64,000 bases of DNA from an uncultured Pseudomonadales bacterium (GTDB lineage: Bacteria; Patescibacteriota; Microgenomatia; UBA1400; PJMF01): the NCBI GenBank assembly GCA_964511345.1, contig CAZEEV010000001.1, forward strand, positions 220,342 through 284,341. The letters are read 5' to 3'. Below the pieces are notes generated by a model. The model did no database searches, was not told where the DNA came from, and saw only the letters and a list, made by a program, of their open reading frames with translations. Position numbers and translations under genes: made by a program. Below, piece after piece: positions 2,606 to 50,243 of the stretch. The stretch's first letter is position 1. Every line of letters begins with the position of its first letter.

Positions 2606-5479
2606 TTAATCAAGCAATAATTTTGTCTCTATACCTTGCTTAATTTTAGTATTGGTTTTATCTTCAATCTCTTGTTTAAAAGCCTCTGGCCAGTTAGCTA
2701 ACTGCAAATCAACAACTTGATTTACATCTAATTTGGCTTCTTTGCGCAGATCTTGAATCTGGCGGATCAACTCTCTAGCTTCGCCTTCTGCTTTCAATTC
2801 TGCGGTTAAATTGAAATCATAATCAACTTCCAAATCACCAGCTTCTTTTAACCACTCCACATTTTTAACATTAATTTCTGCCTTCAACAACTCTTCTAAT
2901 TCTTTACGATAAACCATTTTACCAAAACCACTAACCTTCAAGCTCACCAAAGGCTGACGAGCTTTAATTTGCTTAAGTTTACGCAAGGCGTGAGCTACCT
3001 CCACAATTTTGCGCAAAGTTGACATTGAGTTTTCTAACTCTAAATCAACAAATTGCTCTCGATATTGGGGAAAATCAGTTAAATGAATCGAGCTTTTTTC
3101 ATCGATCATATTATGGTGAATTAATTCCGTAAAAAATGGCACAATTGGCGCAAAAGCTTTAGCGATTTCGTACAGAACAGTCGCAAAAACTTGACTCACT
3201 TCTTGATTATCTTTAGCTTTGATTCTTTCTCTGGAAGAACGCAAATACCAAGTCGATAATTCATCAATAAATGGAGCCAATAAACGACTAGCTTTCATCA
3301 CATCATATCGATCTAATTGTGTTGTGAGTTCTCGAATTACACTCTGCAAACGACTCAAAATCCAACGATCTAATAAGTTGCTCGGTTTTTGGCCAGCTTC
3401 TAAATCAAAGAAGCCAGACTCTTGGTTGCCAAAAGTTTTGTAAAAAGCCAAAACATTCCACCAAATCACGAAAACTCGACGACGCAAATTAACTACATCT
3501 TTTTCTGCAAAATTAAGTGTCTCAGCTTTAACTGCTGGAGAAGACATTAAATAAAGACGTAGAGCATCAGCTCCATATTTTTCCAAAACTTCTCCTGGTT
3601 CTGGATAGTTTTTCAAGCGCTTGCTCATCTTCTTGCCATCTTCAGCCATAATCAAGCCAGTACACATGACGTTTTTGAAAGCGCTACTTTTTTTCTCACT
3701 AGTTAAAGTCAAAGCCGTAGCTAAAACATGCAAAGTATAAAACCAACCACGAGTCTGATCTTGTCCTTCAGAAATAAAATCAGCTGGGAAGGAACGCTTG
3801 AAGGCCTCTTGATTAGCAAAAGGAAAATGCAACTCACCATAAGGCATAGAGCCTGATTCAAACCAGCAGTCCAGAACTTCTGGAATATGACGGTAAGTCT
3901 TACCATCTTTTTTAAACTCGATTTTATCGACGATGTGTTTATGCAAATCGCTAACTTTTTGACCAGAAAGTTGTTCCAACTCTTCAGCAGAACCAACACA
4001 AATAAAATCGCCAGCTTCACTTTCCCAAACTGGCAGAGGAGTACCCCAATAACGATTGCGTGAAATCGCCCAATCTCTGGCTCCTTCTAACCATTTACCA
4101 AAACGACCATGTTTAATATGATCTGGCTCCCAGTTAATCTTTTCATTATTAGCTAACAATTGATCCTTAAAAGAACTGACTTTAACGTACCAACTATCAG
4201 TTGCGTAGTTAAGGAGTGGGGTATCACAACGCCAACAGTGTGGATAGCTGTGCTCAATTTTCTTCTTAGCAAAAAGATTACCATGAGTTGCTAGATATTT
4301 AATGATTTCTATGTCTATTCCCTGAGGATTATCTTTTGGTTTGACTTCCATGCCTGCAAAATCAGTCACCTGGTTAATAAAACGACCATCCATACCTACG
4401 TGTTGTAGCAACTCGATACCTTCAGCTTTGCCAACGTTGTAATCGTCTTCACCAAAAGCAGGTGCGATGTGCACAATTCCAGTTCCATCATCTAAAGTCA
4501 CAAAGTCTCCAGCAACAACACGAAAAGCATTACTCCATTTAGCAAAATAGGGAAAAATTGGCTCATAAGTCAAACCAACTAACTGGCTACCTTTAAAACT
4601 CTGGCCAATTATTTCAAATTTTTTATCCGCCATGACTTCTAATAGGCGTTCTTTGGCTATTACAAATAAACCATTTTCTTCCTCAACTTTAACTAAAACA
4701 TAATCTAAATCTGCACCAACTGCTAACAACACATTACCTGGTAGTGTCCAAGGAGTAGTTGTCCAAGCTACAGCGTAAATTGATTCATTAGTATCGACGC
4801 CTAGTTTTGTGATGGCACCATGTAATTTAAATTTAGCAAAAACCGAAATATCTTTAACATCCTTATAGCCCTGAGTCACTTCGAAATTTGACAAAGGCGT
4901 GCCACAACGAGGACAGATGTGCATGGATTTGTGACTTTTGTAAATTAAGCCTTTATCCCACAGTTGACGGAAGACCCACCAAACTGTTTCCATAAAATCT
5001 TTGTCCATAGTTTTATAAGCGTGATCCATATCAATCCAACGCCCAATGCGACGAATAGTTTTTTTCCATTCTTCCGCATAAGTTAAAACTGTTTGACGAC
5101 AAGCTTCATTAAATTTATCAACTCCATAGCCTTCAATGTCTTTCTTACTATCTAGATTCAATTCTTTTTCGATAATGTTTTCGACAGGTAAACCATGACA
5201 ATCCCAACCCCAAACACGACGGACTCTTTTACCTTTCATCGTCTGGTAACGAGGAATAAGATCCTTGATGATTGATTGCATTAAATGACCATAGTGAGGT
5301 AAACCAGTCGCAAATGGAGGACCATCATAGAAAGAGAATGAGTTGTCGACGCTTCTTTGATCAATTGATTTTTGAAAAGTTTGATCATCATCCCAAAACT
5401 GAAGAGTTTCACTTTCTAACTCTGGAAGGTTTGGTACTTGTTTAAAATCTGTAATTTTCATTTTTTCCTTATGAACCAT
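2606..5479 (-). CDS. ileS: Isoleucyl-tRNA synthetase, type 2 (eukaryote/archaeal-like)
   Basis: 957 aa. The HIGH region FYDGPPFATGLPHYGHL is characteristic of IleRS type 2, and a KMSKR (KMSKS) motif is present. It is preceded by a T-box leader. Confidence 0.9.
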   Translation of the reverse strand: MVHKEKMKITDFKQVPNLPELESETLQFWDDDQTFQKSIDQRSVDNSFSFYDGPPFATGLPHYGHLMQSIIKDLIPRYQTMKGKRVRRVWGWDCHGLPVENIIEKELNLDSKKDIEGYGVDKFNEACRQTVLTYAEEWKKTIRRIGRWIDMDHAYKTMDKDFMETVWWVFRQLWDKGLIYKSHKSMHICPRCGTPLSNFEVTQGYKDVKDISVFAKFKLHGAITKLGVDTNESIYAVAWTTTPWTLPGNVLLAVGADLDYVLVKVEEENGLFVIAKERLLEVMADKKFEIIGQSFKGSQLVGLTYEPIFPYFAKWSNAFRVVAGDFVTLDDGTGIVHIAPAFGEDDYNVGKAEGIELLQHVGMDGRFINQVTDFAGMEVKPKDNPQGIDIEIIKYLATHGNLFAKKKIEHSYPHCWRCDTPLLNYATDSWYVKVSSFKDQLLANNEKINWEPDHIKHGRFGKWLEGARDWAISRNRYWGTPLPVWESEAGDFICVGSAEELEQLSGQKVSDLHKHIVDKIEFKKDGKTYRHIPEVLDCWFESGSMPYGELHFPFANQEAFKRSFPADFISEGQDQTRGWFYTLHVLATALTLTSEKKSSAFKNVMCTGLIMAEDGKKMSKRLKNYPEPGEVLEKYGADALRLYLMSSPAVKAETLNFAEKDVVNLRRRVFVIWWNVLAFYKTFGNQESGFFDLEAGQKPSNLLDRWILSRLQSVIRELTTQLDRYDVMKASRLLAPFIDELSTWYLRSSRERIKAKDNQEVSQVFATVLYEIAKAFAPIVPFFTELIHHNMIDEKSSIHLTDFPQYREQFVDLELENSMSTLRKIVEVAHALRKLKQIKARQPLVSLKVSGFGKMVYRKELEELLKAEINVKNVEWLKEAGDLEVDYDFNLTAELKAEGEARELIRQIQDLRKEAKLDVNQVVDLQLANWPEAFKQEIEDKTNTKIKQGIETKLLLD

Positions 5480-5698
5480 GGTATTCTTACTACTAAAAAA
5501 GCCTGCTCAAAAACGAAATTTTTATCGTTTTTAAGCAGGCTCATCTTTTTACTAGACGAAGGTACCAGCCTTGCTAATACTTGATTTGGAGTGATTACGG
5601 GCTCAACCGATCTGGTTTACTCACTTTTTCATTTCAAAAAAGTTTTCTGCAGACACCTCACCGTGGATAGCGGCTAAAAAGGTTTTAAATACTAAGGA
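5480..5698 (-). promoter_or_regulatory. T-box riboswitch leader (Ile-specific) controlling ileS
   Basis: The minus-strand RNA contains ...UAUUAGCAAGGCUGGUACCUUCGUC.... Helix A1 AGGCU/AGCCU, the 7-nt bulge UGGUACC (UGGU would pair with the tRNA-Ile ACCA end) and helix A2 CGUC/GAUG form a canonical antiterminator that competes with the downstream terminator. An upstream stem contains AUC followed by a purine (rc of plus 5609-5611) as a candidate specifier. Leader length about 220 nt. Confidence 0.6.
5500..5541 (-). terminator. Intrinsic terminator hairpin of the ileS T-box leader. It probably also ends the ftsZ transcript.
   Basis: On the minus strand AGCCUGCUUAAAAACGA-loop-UCGUUUUUGAGCAGGCU is followed by UUUUUU, sitting 20 nt upstream of the ileS AUG. 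The 5' arm overlaps the antiterminator 3' strand. Confidence 0.7.
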
Positions 5699-5699
5699 A

Positions 5700-5728
5700 A
5701 TTATATTTTGAACCCTGTCTTTTTGCAA
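5700..5728 (-). promoter_or_regulatory. Sigma-70-like promoter for the ileS leader
   Basis: On the minus strand: TTGCAA (plus 5723-5728), a 17-nt spacer, then TATAAT (plus 5700-5705). Confidence 0.5.
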
Positions 5729-5782
5729 AAGCAAAAAGCAGATGGTGCAAAAGATGCTGTGCATAACACGAAAGAAAAAAGA

Positions 5783-7084
5783 TTATCTATCTCGCAAAAA
5801 AGCTGGAACATCAAATTCTGCAAACTCATCTTCTGTTTCAACATCTTCTTTTTTATCACTTTGATCATCGCGCTTTTTTTCATCTTTTTTACGTAAATTG
5901 AAGAGAGCTGACCTGACAAAAGGATTATGACTTTCCTCTTCAACCTCTTCCTTCTTAGGCTTTGCGGTTACTATTTGTGGCTGAGTAAAACCACTGGGAG
6001 TGCGATCAATTTTGTCTTCCTCAACTTCCTCATCTGACTTTTTATAAGTCGCGGTGGGGCCACTCATTTTACGGCGAGATTCTCGACTATAAGCTCCGAA
6101 CATCGCTCGTGGACCAGAACCAGAATAGCTATCGCCAAAACCTGTAGCAATGACACTAATTTTAATTTTGGAACCCATATTTTCGTCGATTGTGGCACCG
6201 AAAATAATATTGGCATCTGGATCAGCACTATCAGCAATCACCGCCGAAGCATCTGAGATTTCACTCATCGCCATATCTGGACCACCAGTAATGTTGTAAA
6301 GAATACCCTTGGCCCCATCGATGGAAATTTCTAAGAGTGGGGAAGAAACAGCCATGCGAGCAGCCACTACAGCGCGATCTTCACCAGAAGCTTCACCAAT
6401 ACCCATTAGGGCAGAACCAGAATCAACCATAATTGTTTTTACGTCAGCAAAATCAACATTGATCATACCGGCAATAGTAATTAAGTCGGAAATACCTTTC
6501 ACACCTTGTCCAAGTACATTATCAGCTAAACGGAAGGCATCGATAAAAGTCATTTTCTTATCAATCACTTCTAATAAGCGTTGATTAGGAATAACAATTA
6601 AAGTATCAACAGTGTCAGTTAAAGCCTCAATACCCTCATCAGCGGTTTGCATACGACGAATACCTTCAAAAGCAAAAGGTTTGGTGACGACAGCCACAGT
6701 CAGCGCACCCGCTTCTTTGGCGATTTCGGCGATAATTGGAGCAGCACCTGTACCAGTGCCACCACCCATACCAGCGGTGATAAAAACCATATCAGTATCA
6801 AAGAGCAAATCTTTGAGTTTCTCACGACTTTCTTCAGCAGCGGTGCGACCAACTTCTGGGTCGGCACCAGCGCCCAAACCTCTGGTAAAATTGCTACCAA
6901 TTTGCATTTTGGTTTCTGCTTTGGAGGTTAAAAGAGCCTGAGCATCAGTATTAACTGTAATAAATTCCACCCCATTAATTTGCTTGGAAAGAATCATGGA
7001 ATTGACAGCATTGCTACCGCCACCGCCCACACCGATCACTTTAATTTTGGCAAAAGTAGTATTTGAAGGTTTAACGAGTCCCAT
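5783..7084 (-). CDS. ftsZ: Cell division GTPase FtsZ
   Basis: The [13 protein letters not shown] tubulin signature and an acidic disordered C-terminal tail. Confidence 0.95.
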
Positions 7085-22195: not shown

Positions 22196-22218
22196 GATCT
22201 CTCAATGAGTTCTTAAAA

Positions 22219-22252
22219 TAAAAAATCCAGACCTTAGTCTGGAATTTTTATT
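22219..22252. terminator. Bidirectional intrinsic terminator between the EamA gene and tRNA-Asp
   Basis: aaaaaatCCAGACcttaGTCTGGaattttta: a 6-bp GC-containing stem flanked by an A-run and a T-run. Confidence 0.6.
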
Positions 22253-22255
22253 TTG

Positions 22256-22328
22256 CGACCTCGATCGGGATCGAACCGACGATCTTCTCCGTGACAGGGA
22301 GACATGTTAACCACTACACCACGAGGCC
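22256..22328 (-). tRNA. tRNA-Asp (anticodon GUC)
   Basis: Acceptor GGCCTCG/CGAGGTC, anticodon loop CUGUCAC, T arm GTCGG-TTCGATC-CCGAT, discriminator G. Confidence 0.9.
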
Positions 22329-40133: not shown

Positions 40134-41791
40134 AAATTCGCCATTTCCTTGAATCTTTTATCAAGTAATTCGCCTTCTACAGATTTTAAAAGCCAACCAG
40201 CTCTTGGACCAGCTTTTTTACCAAGCAATAATAAATAAATGCTTTCAAAAGCTTTTCTAGGGCCAAGACTATTTTTGGATAAATCAAAAATTGCTTGCTG
40301 CAGATCTGCTGGAGCTAAATCTTTTTTCTCTGCTAACATAACCTGCAATTCTTTTAAGAAACTTTTTTGTTCTTCACTCAAAGTTTTAGCTTCCTCTGGC
40401 ATTTCTGCTTTTGGTCGCAACTGATACTCACTAGGAGCATAATTTCTTACCCATACTTCAGCATATTTGATGCGTTCTTCAAGTAAAGCTTTTTCTAAAT
40501 CATTAAGTTTCTCACCTTTAATTTTGGCAAATTCTTCTTCTAAATTTAATTCTGGATGTTGCATCCACATCGCCACATCTCTAAAGCGAGGCAAGAAAGA
40601 AGTTTGTTGAGCTTTACCAAACTGAGATAATTCAAAAGCTCTGGCCAATCTTCGATCACCTTCTTCTAAACCCCAAGCAATGCGTGCTCCTTGATCATAT
40701 TCATCAAAAAGATCTGGAATTGCCATAGTATTTGGATCAAAATCAATTACCTGAGCATAATTACGACTGGCAAATAAAAAGCGCCCAACAGTTGGAGGGA
40801 AAAGTTTGGTAAATTCACGAGCTGAGGTGCCAACACCTTTACTAGAACTCATTTTAGCTCCACGAATCAAAATCCATTCGTAAGGAATATTGAAAGGCAC
40901 AGGAATATTAAAAACTTGTTGGCATTGAGCACTAGCCATATCTCTTGAACCTCCAGCACTAGAGTGATCTTTACCAGCACCTTCAATATTGACACCCATT
41001 GCCGTCCAATGAGCTGGCCAATCAACCTTCCATAATAGTTTACCGTTGCCTCCAAATGGGCTTATTTTGCCTTTATGTCCACAGCCTTTGGCCCAAGTGA
41101 CTTTATTTTCTTGACACTCAAAGGTTACTTCTTGACCATCCCAACCAGTAACCAGAGTGGTTCCAACTTTACCGCAAACTGGACAAATTACTTGAAATGG
41201 ATACCAAAGTTCCGGTAATTCATATTTGGCGACATCTTGATAGATTTTTCTAAGTGGCGTAACGCTATCCAAAGCTAAACGAATTAGATCGTCCATTTTG
41301 CCAGATTCATAAAGCTCATGACTCCAGACAATCTCTTGAGTACATCCTAAAGAACGGAAGGCGTGCATAAAATCTACCGCATAAAGTTGTGCAAAATTTT
41401 TTGCGTTTTCAAGATCCGCTAATTCTGCAGCTGAAGTCTGGGTTAAATCAATGCCACATTGATCTAAAGCTGGTTTGGGAATTCTATAAAGAGGTTTGCC
41501 CATGTGCTGACCGAACTCTGTTTCATCTAAATAAGCTGGCAAACCATCCATTGGATCCATGTCATTAAAAACATAAGTGTTATCTGGTTCAATGCCTCTT
41601 TCACGTAAAACTTGAGCGACTAAATCATGAAGTAAAACACCACGTAAGGCACCAGTGTGTACACGACCAGAAGGGGTTTTCATATCGTCTACGTGCAATC
41701 GTTTAATACCAGTTTTTTCTTGCCACTTCAAAATACCATCAACCACTTTATCTAGCCAATGTTTGCTTTGTGGTATTTGTGTTTTTTCCAT
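40130..41791 (-). CDS. lysK: Lysyl-tRNA synthetase, class I (LysK-type)
   Basis: 553 aa. A class I Rossmann HxGx element (PSGRVHTGALRG) and KMSSSKG, the characteristic KMSKS variant of class I LysRS. Confidence 0.6.
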   Translation of the reverse strand: MEKTQIPQSKHWLDKVVDGILKWQEKTGIKRLHVDDMKTPSGRVHTGALRGVLLHDLVAQVLRERGIEPDNTYVFNDMDPMDGLPAYLDETEFGQHMGKPLYRIPKPALDQCGIDLTQTSAAELADLENAKNFAQLYAVDFMHAFRSLGCTQEIVWSHELYESGKMDDLIRLALDSVTPLRKIYQDVAKYELPELWYPFQVICPVCGKVGTTLVTGWDGQEVTFECQENKVTWAKGCGHKGKISPFGGNGKLLWKVDWPAHWTAMGVNIEGAGKDHSSAGGSRDMASAQCQQVFNIPVPFNIPYEWILIRGAKMSSSKGVGTSAREFTKLFPPTVGRFLFASRNYAQVIDFDPNTMAIPDLFDEYDQGARIAWGLEEGDRRLARAFELSQFGKAQQTSFLPRFRDVAMWMQHPELNLEEEFAKIKGEKLNDLEKALLEERIKYAEVWVRNYAPSEYQLRPKAEMPEEAKTLSEEQKSFLKELQVMLAEKKDLAPADLQQAIFDLSKNSLGPRKAFESIYLLLLGKKAGPRAGWLLKSVEGELLDKRFKEMANL

Positions 41792-41809
41792 AAAATTCCT
41801 ATTGTATTG

Positions 41810-41979
41810 TACAAACCAAGAACTTTAACATAAGACCATTTGCAGAAGCTGATTGCCAAACATCAATAAACAATCATGTTTATAGACAGCGACTGCAATG
41901 AGTGTAGAAGAAGATCGTTAACTTAAAGAAGCTAATAATTTTCGTCTAACGTGTCTTATGTTAAAGTTCTTGGTTTGTA
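41810..41979 (-). repeat. Perfect 27-bp inverted repeat pair separated by 116 bp in the lysK 5' leader; a MITE-like or long-hairpin element
   Basis: tacaaaccaagaactttaacataagac at 41810-41836 and its exact reverse complement at 41953-41979. The spacer contains nested imperfect palindromes (atttgcag/ctgcaat; ataaacaatcatgtttat). A candidate -10 box TATAAT (rc of 41981-41986) lies just upstream on the minus strand, and an AGGAA RBS lies 6 nt before the lysK AUG. Confidence 0.7.
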
Positions 41980-41993
41980 AACCCTATTATATC

Positions 41994-42030
41994 TAAAAAA
42001 CCCCGCTTTTGGCGGGGCTTTTCTTGTTTT
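41994..42030 (-). terminator. greA intrinsic terminator
   Basis: aaaaaaCCCCGCttttgGCGGGGcttttcttgttttt: a GC stem with a U-run on the minus strand. Confidence 0.65.
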
Positions 42031-42039
42031 TAATTTGTT

Positions 42040-42504
42040 TTATTTAATTTCTAAAATTTTGTAAGTAATTTTGCCCGCCGGGGTTTCTACTTCAACCTTA
42101 TCTCCCTTACTCTTGGAGAATAAAGCCTTGCCAACTGGAGATTCAACAGAAATTTTACCTTCAGCTGGGTTAGATTCATATTCACCACTCATTTGGTAAG
42201 TGATTTTTTTATTTTTACCAACTACTTCTACAGTTACAATAGAGCCCAAGGAAACAGTGCTAGTGCTTTTGACGGCAGTGACTTCGGCTTTGGCCAGAAT
42301 CTCTTCAATTTCATTAACACGAGCTTGTAAAATATCTCTTTCATCTCTCGCACTGTGATAATCAGCATTTTCTGAAAGATCACCTTGTTCTCTGGCATTG
42401 GCAATTCGTTCGATCACTCGAGGCATGGAAACAGTTTTGAGTTCTTGCAACTCTTGTTGCAACTCTTCGTAACCAGTCTGAGTAATTGTAATTGTGTCTG
42501 ACAT
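42040..42504 (-). CDS. greA: Transcription elongation factor GreA
   Basis: 154 aa. N-terminal coiled coil and a C-terminal FKBP-like domain; ...LSENADYHSARDE... is conserved. Confidence 0.9.
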   Translation of the reverse strand: MSDTITITQTGYEELQQELQELKTVSMPRVIERIANAREQGDLSENADYHSARDERDILQARVNEIEEILAKAEVTAVKSTSTVSLGSIVTVEVVGKNKKITYQMSGEYESNPAEGKISVESPVGKALFSKSKGDKVEVETPAGKITYKILEIK

Positions 42505-45195: not shown

Positions 45196-45264
45196 TATTT
45201 GGCTTTTCATCTATACCGGCTCCATTTATAAAAAAACACGCTTACAGCGTGATTTTTTATAAAG

Positions 45265-45338
45265 TGAGTCCGGTGGGACTCGAACCCACGACGCACAGCT
45301 TAAAAGGCTGTCGCTCTAACCGACTGAGCTACGGACCC
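45265..45338 (-). tRNA. tRNA-Lys (anticodon UUU)
   Basis: Acceptor GGGTCCG/CGGACTC, anticodon loop CUUUUAA, T arm GTGGG-TTCGAGT-CCCAC, discriminator A. A terminator hairpin (cacgctgtaagcgtg + U-run) follows at 45231-45260. Confidence 0.85.
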
Positions 45339-45390
45339 ATGTTAAAAAACAAGTTATTATATCAAAGTTTAAAAACTTTATAGCCTCTAA

Positions 45391-45960
45391 TTAATCATTG
45401 ACTCTAGAAACGTAAGCTGCTGTTTCAGTATCAATTAATAAGGTATCACCGGTTTTAATAAAAAGAGGTGCTTGAACAATCAAACCACTTTCCATCACTA
45501 TTGGCTTTTTACCAGCAGTCTGACGATCGCCAGAGACAGCATCTTGAGCTTCTGCCACAGTCATTCTAACCTTAGGTGGCAAAATTACCCCAATTACTTG
45601 CTCTTCATAAATAGTTAAATAAACTTTGATTTCAGAAGTTAGCATCTGCACTTTATCACCCAAAATATGTTTTGGTACAGATAATTGTTCATAAGAGCGT
45701 GGATCCATAAAGACAACTTCATTACCATCCAAATACAAAAATTGCATTTCTTTTGTTTCAACATCTAATTCTTCAACATTGTCGTGAGATTTAAAGTTAA
45801 ATTCGATGTTGGCACCATTGCGCATATCGCGCATTTTGACTCTGGTAAAAGCAGAACCTTTGCCAGGAGAAACGAATTGGGTCTTCACTACATAATGAGG
45901 AAGGTCTTTATATAAAATATAAATACCTTTTTTGATGTTGCCGGCTTTGATGGTTGACAT
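45391..45960 (-). CDS. efp: Translation elongation factor P
   Basis: 189 aa. ...VSPGKGSAFTRVKMRD... carries the conserved modified Lys loop. Confidence 0.9.
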   Translation of the reverse strand: MSTIKAGNIKKGIYILYKDLPHYVVKTQFVSPGKGSAFTRVKMRDMRNGANIEFNFKSHDNVEELDVETKEMQFLYLDGNEVVFMDPRSYEQLSVPKHILGDKVQMLTSEIKVYLTIYEEQVIGVILPPKVRMTVAEAQDAVSGDRQTAGKKPIVMESGLIVQAPLFIKTGDTLLIDTETAAYVSRVND

Positions 45961-45991
45961 AACTAGAGTATTTTACGCCTGGCGTATTGTT

Positions 45992-47053
45992 TTAGTCAAG
46001 GAAGAGCTCACTGGCTGGAAAAAGTAGAGCGTCGTCAATATTATCTACATCTGAAAAAAGCATAACCAAGCGGTCAACTCCCACCGCCATGCCGCTACAA
46101 GCTGACAAACCAGATTTTAAAGCATCAAGAAAATCTTGATCAATTGGTTGTGATTTTTTGCCCAGTTCATGACGTAAAAGTAAATCTGCCTCCAAACCTT
46201 CTTTTTGCAAAACTGCATCAGTTAATTCTCCAAAAGCATTGCCCAATTCCATACCTGCCAAATAAACTTCAAAACGTTCTGCAAAACGCGGATCTTTTTT
46301 GGTTCTCTGAGCTAAAGCTGTTTGGGCAGCAGGATAATCATAAACAATCACTGGCTGATTAAATTCGGCCAACTTGGGTTCAATTTCGTTTAAAAACAAT
46401 TGGTTATAAACTTCCTCCCAAATTAGATCTTTAGAAAGAGCCTTGAGACCGGTTAAATCATAACCTAATTCCAGAGCTTTAAGACAAATGGCGCGTAAAT
46501 CAAAAAGTTGGTCTTCATTTAAATTTAAATATTTTTTAAATAATTCTGCGACACTAATTTTTGGATAGGGAGCACTTAAATCAAAAGTTTCGCCCTGATA
46601 AACAAACTTTTTTTCATCAATTCCTAGATTTCGACAAACAAAACTAAGCATGTGCGCAAAATCATCCATCACCTTAAAATAATTAGCATTGACACGGTAA
46701 AACTCTAAAATTGTAAACTCTGGATTATGCCAACCACCCAAACTTTCCTGATTTCTAAAAGTTTTACAGATTTGAAAAATATTACCAAAATCAGCAGCCA
46801 ATAATTTTTTCATGGCATACTCTGGACTAGTGGTTAAATAAACTGGTTTTTCTTGACCATCGGTTAACTGAAGTTTACTTTCAAAAAGATTAAAATATGG
46901 CTCAGTACTGGGTACGCTTATCATGAGCGGAGTTTCAACTTCATGAAAATTATTTTGTTTAAAAAAAAGTCGCAAAGCATCAACTACTTTTTCTCTAATC
47001 AAAAATCGTGTCTTAAGACCAGGATCTGCCTTAATTTTTTGCCAATTTTTCAT
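45992..47053 (-). CDS. epmA: EF-P beta-lysine ligase EpmA (PoxA/GenX; truncated class II LysRS paralog)
   Basis: 353 aa. Class II core motifs (FHEVETP.., TSPEY, FRNE, GGWHNPEFT, GMAVGVDRL) without an anticodon-binding domain, and a position adjacent to efp. Confidence 0.7.
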   Translation of the reverse strand: MKNWQKIKADPGLKTRFLIREKVVDALRLFFKQNNFHEVETPLMISVPSTEPYFNLFESKLQLTDGQEKPVYLTTSPEYAMKKLLAADFGNIFQICKTFRNQESLGGWHNPEFTILEFYRVNANYFKVMDDFAHMLSFVCRNLGIDEKKFVYQGETFDLSAPYPKISVAELFKKYLNLNEDQLFDLRAICLKALELGYDLTGLKALSKDLIWEEVYNQLFLNEIEPKLAEFNQPVIVYDYPAAQTALAQRTKKDPRFAERFEVYLAGMELGNAFGELTDAVLQKEGLEADLLLRHELGKKSQPIDQDFLDALKSGLSACSGMAVGVDRLVMLFSDVDNIDDALLFPASELFLD

Positions 47054-50100: not shown

Positions 50101-50172
50101 ACTTAAAAAATTCCGTTTTTGCTTTACCACTTCATTTTAAAAATAGCCCATTTCTGGGCTATTTTTAAAATG

Positions 50173-50243
50173 AGCGGGTGACCAGAATCGGACTGGCTTC
50201 TTCTCCTTGGAAGGGAGACATACTACCGGTGTACTACACCCGC
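50173..50243 (-). tRNA. tRNA-Gly (anticodon UCC)
   Basis: Acceptor GCGGGTG/CACCCGC, anticodon loop CUUCCAA, T arm GCCAG-TCCGATT-CTGGT, discriminator U. The T-loop is slightly atypical (C at the usual U55). A terminator hairpin agcccatttctgggct follows at 50145-50160. Confidence 0.75.

Follow-up and report, generated by a model that had tools for sequence, protein, structure and literature searches.

A palindromic repeat in the leader of the lysK-HD-serS-secA genes is probably a copy of a low-copy repeat family of Pacebacteria

The DNA analysed here, hereafter called the window, is a stretch of 64 kb, and between its genes greA and lysK there is a long perfect inverted repeat. This repeat is, in our judgement, probably a subtype-A copy of a low-copy, non-autonomous palindromic family of the Correia/ERIC-like kind, which belongs to a narrow clade of Pacebacteria and has its effect at the RNA level. 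The copy in the window appears to have been inserted between the −10 box and the ribosome-binding site (RBS) of lysK. The evidence comes from the structure of the repeat, from related copies in other genomes, from filled and empty insertion sites in close relatives, and from the fold and the compensatory changes shared by the copies. Loci from other genomes and metagenomes are designated by an L with a number.

The repeat in the lysK leader

The repeat consists of two 27-nt arms which are 100% complementary (27/27) and enclose a spacer of 116 nt (Table 1). The arm sequence was found at these two places alone in the 64-kb window with up to three mismatches allowed, and none of the dinucleotide shuffles (0/100) contained any arm match. 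On the minus strand, greA and its terminator are followed by the TATAAT box and, after a gap of 6 nt, by the 5′ arm; then come the core and the 3′ arm, and a stretch of 18 nt with AGGAA leads to the ATG codon of lysK. The downstream genes form the string lysK-HD-serS-secA, as shown by a Pfam search of the window, where HD stands for an HD-domain protein. The arms with their spacing, the leader context with its TATAAT box, AGGAA RBS and 18 nt to the start codon, the gene string, and the sub-palindromes nested in the spacer, which correspond to the hairpins at 41905-41948 and 41840-41898, had all been read from the letters alone in the original prediction, and every one of them was confirmed. 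The TATAAT box of lysK is kept in relatives both with and without the element.

Table 1. Features of the lysK leader in the window, listed in the order of the minus strand.
Feature	Position	Strand	Remarks
greA	42040-42504	-	upstream neighbour of the lysK leader
greA intrinsic terminator GCCCCGCCAAAAGCGGGGTTTTTT	about 41995..42019	-	parts greA from the lysK promoter and the element
Upstream direct repeat ATATAATAGG	41983..41992	-	candidate target-site duplication, contains the −10 box
TATAAT −10 box, presumed lysK promoter	41986..41991	-	6 nt upstream of the 5′ arm
Whole element according to the family covariance model R1	41807..41982	-	191.5 bits, E about 1e-40
Element termini			read GNNCTTTAA...AGAC
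5′ arm (first on the lysK strand)	41953..41979	-	inverted-repeat match, TACAAACCAAGAACTTTAACATAAGAC
Inner ~14 nt of the 5′ arm, CTTTAACATAAGAC			common to other family members; the outer ~13 nt are peculiar to the window copy
116-nt directional core, subtype A	41837..41952	-	87-94% identity to other subtype-A copies (other loci, other species)
Internal imperfect hairpin P3, ~20 bp	41905..41948	-	UAGACGAAAAUUAUUAGCUU-CUUU-AAGUUAACGAUCUUCUUCUA
Interrupted hairpin P4/P5	41840..41898	-	UUGCAG-UC-GCUG ... CAGC-UU-CUGCAA around UAAACAU/AUGUUUG
3′ arm, exact reverse complement of the 5′ arm	41810..41836	-	ends 18 nt before the lysK ATG; the + strand reads TACAAACCAAGAACTTTAACATAAGAC here
Downstream direct repeat ATACAATAGG	41798..41807	-	9/10 identical to the upstream copy, overlaps the AGGAA RBS
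AGGAA RBS (41800-41796) and lysK ATG (41791-41789)	41789..41800	-	both outside the hairpin

LysK is a class I LysRS which is 91-92% identical to proteins from groundwater Candidatus Pacebacteria (CPR/Patescibacteria), one of them being encoded in the 853-kb complete genome GW2011_GWF2_38_9. Elsewhere the window has the gene content of an ordinary chromosome, with the dcw cluster, dnaE, transketolase, fpg, efp and glycolytic genes. Neither transposase nor recombinase genes were found within the 64-kb window, and it contains no orthologues of the other element-bearing loci. A second copy of the element was not detected in the window either by the arm search with three mismatches or by the covariance model with filters off.

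Several further observations concern the surroundings of lysK. The region 45264-47053 (minus strand), 3.5 kb from class I lysK, carries a 353-aa truncated class II paralogue of the Lys/Asp/Asn-type synthetases, probably EpmA/PoxA-like, directly upstream of efp (45391-45960), as well as a tRNA-Lys(UUU) gene (45264-45338). The tRNA genes for Gly, Asp and Lys (50119-50186, 22203-22266, 45212-45276) are each followed by a GC-cored hairpin with an A-/T-tract extension, for example CATTTTAAAAATAGCCCAGAAATGGGCTATTTTTAAAATG; these hairpins look like bidirectional terminators and give weak, spurious matches to the arm part of the element model. In one assembly of a GW2011_GWF2_38_9-like strain (L003, 4659-5182) two ORFs of 64 and 110 aa take the place of the single HD-domain gene after lysK, which is either a frameshift or an assembly error.

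Members of the family

A search with a degenerate pattern of the core gave seven places in five species-representative genomes, two each in CP011212.1 and CAZWWE010000001.1, and eight true places in metagenomes. A covariance model built from 14 copies (R1) recovers all 14 at 140-198 bits and adds a more diverged copy, L036, at 99.8 bits. CP011212.1 harbors at least two copies, and the 320-kb contig CAZWWE010000001.1 two full copies and one truncated mini copy, so that the copy number according to the core-pattern matches is at least 2-3 per genome. The original prediction had offered a miniature inverted-repeat element (MITE), expected to be multi-copy, as one option, and this option is upheld by the several copies in related genomes together with the empty sites and the core-deleted derivative described below. 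What was found is not a single copy lacking conservation and covariation, but a family which is multi-copy, conserved and covarying.

As regards the names of the records, CP011212.1 (the source of L018 and L020) is titled 'candidate division TM6 GW2011_GWF2_28_16' with its proteins named Pacebacteria GW2011_GWF2_38_9, and several contigs of CPR metagenome-assembled genomes (L019, L021, L023 and L024 among the records) are titled 'uncultured Pseudomonadales'.

The element measures 157-172 bp in the copies examined (~160-175 bp for the family in general) and consists of a directional core of ~116 nt within inverted arms of 24-29 bp, the latter being present in 15/15 full copies. Two subtypes of the core can be told apart: the window copy, the L018 group, L019/L025, L023/L024 and L034 have subtype A, and L020, L013, L022 and L031 have subtype B, to which L036 is close. 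Core identity is 0.85-0.98 within subtype A, 0.79-0.86 within subtype B and 0.72-0.86 between the subtypes. The inner ~14 nt of the arms are semi-conserved (G-N-N-CTTTAA-N(4)-AG-N-C), while the outer 8-13 nt are different at every locus, yet complementary inside each copy, and in several copies the arms are perfect (27/27, 25/25, 27/27).

The element was found in the lysK leader, in the divergent spacer between mreB and the PEGA gene, between nrdR and the class II ribonucleotide reductase (RNR) gene, upstream of a GT39 glycosyltransferase gene, at two junctions of a mevalonate operon (thiolase to a DUF35-like gene, and the DUF35-like gene to mevalonate kinase), upstream of a gene for a 572-aa membrane protein, and upstream of ybaB. 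These genes have no common function, which rules out a regulator specific to aminoacyl-tRNA synthetases (aaRS). All the copies seen are within transcription units, and their orientation is that of the downstream gene at 8/8 loci, the probability of which by chance is about 2^-8. Six copies start 4-7 nt past a TATAAT-like box, so their 5′ arm lies at about the expected transcription start site, and the remaining copies directly follow or overlap the stop codon of a co-directional upstream gene.

The PEGA protein of the L018 locus (5269-6783, P0121) has a public gene call of 504 aa that starts in the element, whereas its homologues and the RBS place the start ~19 codons later and give 485 aa; the 504-aa call is an annotation artefact produced by the element.

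Filled and empty insertion sites

The spacer between greA and lysK carries an element of the same size in L002/L020 (LysK 91% identical to that of the window) and in L013 (92%), and the site is empty in L012 (92%), L040 (87%), L017 (85%), L014/15 (82%) and L016 (81%). The empty greA-lysK spacers are 61-98 bp long and retain the same terminator and TATAAT box. L013 and L020 have copies of subtype B, the window one of subtype A. Six loci have the element at the PEGA site, which is empty in L035 and L038. The lysK and PEGA sites each contain subtype A, subtype B or nothing, depending on the lineage.

In the mevalonate operon both junctions are filled in L023, and L041 is a clean empty site for both of these copies: its thiolase stop codon is located 2 nt from the next ATG, and the following junction is a ATGTCTAG overlap. 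The second L023 copy (L023b) has kept the 24-nt terminus AAAACTTAGTCCTTTAACATAAGAC of the first copy and has lost ~125 nt of the core; it is absent from L024 and L041, and is therefore a recent local derivative. The terminus of the element encodes the last codons and the stop codon of upstream proteins (..IKT*, ..ERT*). Since the IKT tail of thiolase is confined to element-bearing loci, it is the element terminus that supplies these last codons and the stop, and the native thiolase coding sequence is overlapped by only ~3 nt of the arm. At the level of sequence comparison, the pairs of filled and empty sites and the core-deleted derivative show recent mobility of the family.

The window copy is itself apparently young, judging from its perfect arms, its near-perfect flanking repeat and the empty site in close relatives. 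The flanking repeats ATATAATAGG and ATACAATAGG are each located within 2-3 nt of the arms, and their similarity is suggestive of a 10-bp target duplication, which would have doubled the −10 box together with the AGG of the RBS. Another copy, L022, is flanked by a perfect 8/8 repeat (ATAATAAA / ATAATAAA). Across 11 copies of the family, target-site duplication showed no excess over a mismatched-pair control in this AT-rich background (p = 0.13-0.25).

The comparisons of the window copy and L013 with L012, and of L023 with L041, fit insertion of the whole repeat. The comparison of L020 with L040 suggests that the outer part of the 5′ arm could be host sequence which has been copied in inverted form to the 3′ side; the L040 lysK site may be a secondary deletion. 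In the 'empty' lysK leader of L017 (2903-3000) there is a small hairpin, AAACAC-AATTTA-GTGTTT, followed by TTTAAAG and faintly arm-like, so this leader could contain the remnant of an old copy and not be a never-occupied site.

Two more observations were made at lysK loci. Four independent Logan short-read contigs carrying lysK (L001 (1-114), L008, L009 and L010 (1-122)) all begin within the element just past P3, 114-122 nt ahead of the lysK ATG, and longer assemblies read through it; these breaks may be due to coverage loss across the hairpin or to a graph break at the nested palindrome. In L014 (6460-6650), the spacer between serS and a DnaJ-domain gene contains four perfect palindromes of ~20 bp, two copies of TGTCGACAAATTGTCGACA and two of TGTCTACAAATTGTAGACA, which looks like a different, operator-array-like repeat family.

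Fold, constraint and covariation

A fold energy of −70 kcal/mol (z = −9.4 relative to shuffles) was obtained for a 204-nt region comprising the element when read on the lysK strand, and of −66.6 kcal/mol (z = −9.1) when read on the opposite strand; no shuffle matched the fold energy of the region. The consensus fold of the family includes P1 formed by the arms, P2 (CGUU/AAUG), a three-way junction, the long imperfect hairpin P3, P4 ((U)UGCAG-UC-GCUG / CAGC-UC-CUGCAA) and P5 (UAUAAACAU/AUGUUUAU) with the conserved loop AAUUGCUUAUUU. Other candidate features of the core were rejected: a conserved small ORF, which loses its frame in L019 and L025 owing to a 1-nt deletion, and an internal promoter, for which one weak, non-conserved consensus match was seen.

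Folding and covariation analysis across homologues had been named in the original prediction as a check, and it revealed a conserved fold with compensatory pairs in the stems. In an alignment of 15 copies, 95.5% of the cells are standard pairs and 24/54 pairs have changed on both sides, whereas neither any of the shuffles (0/500) nor any slid register comes near the observed pairing. Most of the double changes fall in P1. Elsewhere, a C-G pair of P4 in subtype A is replaced by A-U in subtype B, the UC/UC internal loop of P4 is paired in L013 (AA/UU) and L036 (UC/GA), and the innermost arm pairs AGAC/GUCU read AGUG/CACU in L036. Compensatory changes are also seen within a single locus, namely AATTAAT/ATTAATT versus AATTGAT/ATCAATT at the nrdR stop codon (L019/L025), and ATCATTG/CAATGAT, ATCCTTG/TAAGGAT and ATTCCTG/CAGGAAT at the PEGA locus (L018 group).

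At loci shared across species, identity amounts to 88-94% in the core and 74-96% in the arms, compared with only 40-56% at fourfold-degenerate sites, which are near saturation; with the insertion points being identical, these values would correspond to core evolution roughly 5-8-fold slower than at fourfold sites. As two loci carry both subtypes, this same-locus likeness may partly reflect recent re-insertion or horizontal replacement.

The arms contain 5 G.U and 9 A.C wobbles, without strand-specific bias, and the consensus (alifold) energies of the sense and antisense strands are about equal, the antisense core being slightly better in 11/14 copies. The covariation is of the Watson-Crick type and thus does not identify the transcribed strand, and for that reason a selected RNA hairpin is inseparable here from a DNA hairpin kept by template switching. 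Taken from these alignments, the fixed orientation, the slow core and the compensatory stems indicate that the folded form is maintained, whether by selection or by hairpin-templated correction.

Comparison with known elements

No Rfam family matches the element, either at the gathering threshold over the whole window or at E ≤ 10 over 41700-42100, and the matches obtained in these scans are tRNAs and terminator look-alikes only. The statement in the original prediction that the repeat is not a T-box is in keeping with this result, as no Rfam match falls on the element even at E ≤ 10. No match to the element was found in viral contigs, phage records or plasmid records, and the literature searched contains no description of MITEs or of leader RNAs in CPR. 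The ~170-bp palindromic family is thus apparently undescribed.

The ERIC (IRU) elements of enterobacteria are imperfect palindromes of ~127 bp located in transcribed intergenic regions and similar across species. Their mobility machinery is unknown, and they affect mRNA stability; they lack long perfect terminal arms and occur in both orientations. The present element resembles them as a transcribed palindrome, but it comes from a different host, shows no sequence relation to them, and has long arms and a single orientation.

Like T-box leaders and riboswitches, the window copy belongs to the 5′ leader of an operon with aaRS genes; unlike T-box leaders, it has no specifier or T-box sequence and no terminator/antiterminator, and the family is not restricted to aaRS genes. 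The arms of L020 (4540-4710, the same as L002 2816-2986), TTAGCACTT ... AAGTGCTAA, match each half of the CIRCE operator at 8/9 positions. A CIRCE/HrcA operator was rejected at this place as a coincidence, given that the other copies differ and that the half-sites would be spaced ~150 bp apart.

Prokaryotic MITEs are defined as small elements with terminal inverted repeats and no ORF, which are present in several copies at intergenic locations (PMC11602168). The family has inverted termini of 24-29 bp (at least 10-15 bp being expected of a MITE), small size, no coding capacity, several dispersed copies, intergenic sites and insertion polymorphism with empty sites, and in all this it agrees with MITEs. 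A cognate IS or transposase with matching termini was not found, the 64-kb window containing none. The family differs from generic MITEs in that individual insertions are constrained and not decaying, and in that the outer arms vary, which is atypical of termini bound by a transposase.

The closest likeness in architecture is to the Correia elements (CREE/NEMIS) of Neisseria, which are 153-157 bp long with inverted ends of ~26 bp and a conserved directional core, have shorter, internally deleted forms, and differ in insertion between strains (PMC2649163). They are often located between a promoter and a gene and thus become part of the mRNA, in which the stem is then cleaved by RNase III (PMC2649163). 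The similarity extends to size (~170 bp here), inverted ends, directional core, the deleted form, location 5′ of genes and insertion polymorphism. The differences are the CPR host; few copies per genome as compared with 100-250 for Correia; no TA duplication at most copies, with a candidate duplication of 8-10 bp here; copy-specific outer arms with compensatory changes; and a fixed orientation to the downstream gene in all copies seen. Moreover, neither an IHF site nor promoter generation has been demonstrated for the CPR element. The element is not a member of the Correia family: the likeness is one of architecture only, apparently without any sequence relation.

Possible function and origin of the element

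As the 5′ arm lies ~6 nt past the TATAAT box, the lysK-HD-serS-secA mRNA should begin with the complete element, which would account for its first ~170 nt, with transcription presumably driven from the lysK promoter to which this box points. The RNA would fold into the 27-bp stem with a 4-bp extension closing the three-way junction, and the RBS would be left free. A long double-stranded stem at the extreme 5′ end may serve, by analogy with Correia, as an RNase III substrate and/or a 5′ protective structure; the stem, uninterrupted over 27 bp, exceeds the length of at least ~20 bp set for an RNase III hairpin. A long hairpin of the RNase III type was among the options of the original prediction, and as a part of the present reading it is plausible. 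The element is probably a target of RNase III or of mRNA stability control, as the Correia analogy would have it, and the stem would govern how the downstream message is processed and how long it lasts, with no sensing of lysine or tRNA-Lys.

The last point concerns a further suggestion of the original prediction, a cis-regulatory RNA for aaRS control, which did not hold: the downstream genes are unrelated and most lysK orthologues have no element. A riboswitch- or T-box-like leader specific to lysK or aaRS genes, sensing lysine or tRNA-Lys, would agree with the position of the window copy, which precedes lysK and serS in the lysK 5′ leader. It is nevertheless hardly credible, with five lysK orthologues (81-92% identity) devoid of the element, with copies preceding RNR, PEGA, GT39, mevalonate-operon and ybaB genes, with no T-box or Rfam match, and with a perfect 27-bp closing stem that cannot switch and an RBS that is not sequestered. 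An inverton, a promoter switch that works by recombination at the arms and flipping of the 116-bp segment, would account for inverted repeats around a short segment just upstream of a gene and for several Logan contigs ending within the element. This explanation is very improbable too: the core has the same orientation in 15/15 full copies from many samples, the contigs end in the middle of the core and away from the arm boundaries, the core lacks a consistent promoter, and no recombinase gene is located nearby in the 64-kb window.

The idea that the element is purely selfish DNA and does nothing for its host deserves more attention, and we regard it as possible, albeit rather unlikely. The hairpin would then matter only as DNA, for instance as a folded single-stranded intermediate of transposition, the arms would be kept complementary by template switching during replication (quasi-palindrome correction), and the likeness between species would result from recent spread, or from renewed insertion at a small number of permissive sites close to promoters. 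The insertion polymorphism, the deletion derivative and the candidate target-site duplication all agree with it, as do the presence of both subtypes at the lysK and PEGA sites in different lineages, the arm mismatches without strand-specific wobble bias, the equally good folding of sense and antisense strands, and the perfect arms of several copies, which look templated more than selected. What speaks against it is that the orientation follows the downstream gene at 8/8 loci with all copies in transcription units, that non-palindromic parts of the core (the junction ACACUCA and the P5 loop) show no less conservation than the stems, and that at shared loci, where the insertion points are identical, the core changes several-fold more slowly than fourfold sites do.

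Two further readings attribute an activity of its own to the RNA. According to one of them, which we consider unlikely, the element is a mobile structured-RNA module, its three-way-junction RNA being kept by the host as a protein platform, a small RNA or a ribozyme; the closing stem would then be kept perfect, and perhaps extended into the host flank, by hairpin-templated correction. According to the other, the RNA has been domesticated as an excised small RNA, a protein platform or a self-cleaving ribozyme, with mobility being secondary. The three-way junction, the near-invariant junction and loop nucleotides, the covarying helices, the strong constraint on the core and the fixed orientation would suit such an RNA, which would be new, having no Rfam match. 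Domestication is still quite improbable, because there is little covariation within P3-P5, where the sequences barely vary, the strand is not assignable, no neighbouring protein gene is conserved, just ~15 copies are known, all from one narrow clade, and a core-deleted copy persists.

Significance

CPR/Patescibacteria genomes are extremely streamlined, and the literature searched includes no report of interspersed repeats or leader RNAs for them. Here, a dispersed element is found in the leaders of essential genes (lysK-serS-secA, RNR and the mevalonate operon), where it is apparently both recently mobile and constrained. For annotators this means that the hairpin is not to be taken for an aaRS regulator and that gene callers run ORFs into the element; short-read contigs tend to break in it, and its presence or absence may serve as a fine-scale strain marker. 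The element offers a testable handle on post-transcriptional control in organisms which have not yet been grown alone, and, if the reading as a mobile RNA module were true, it would represent a new way for ultra-small CPR genomes to gain such control.
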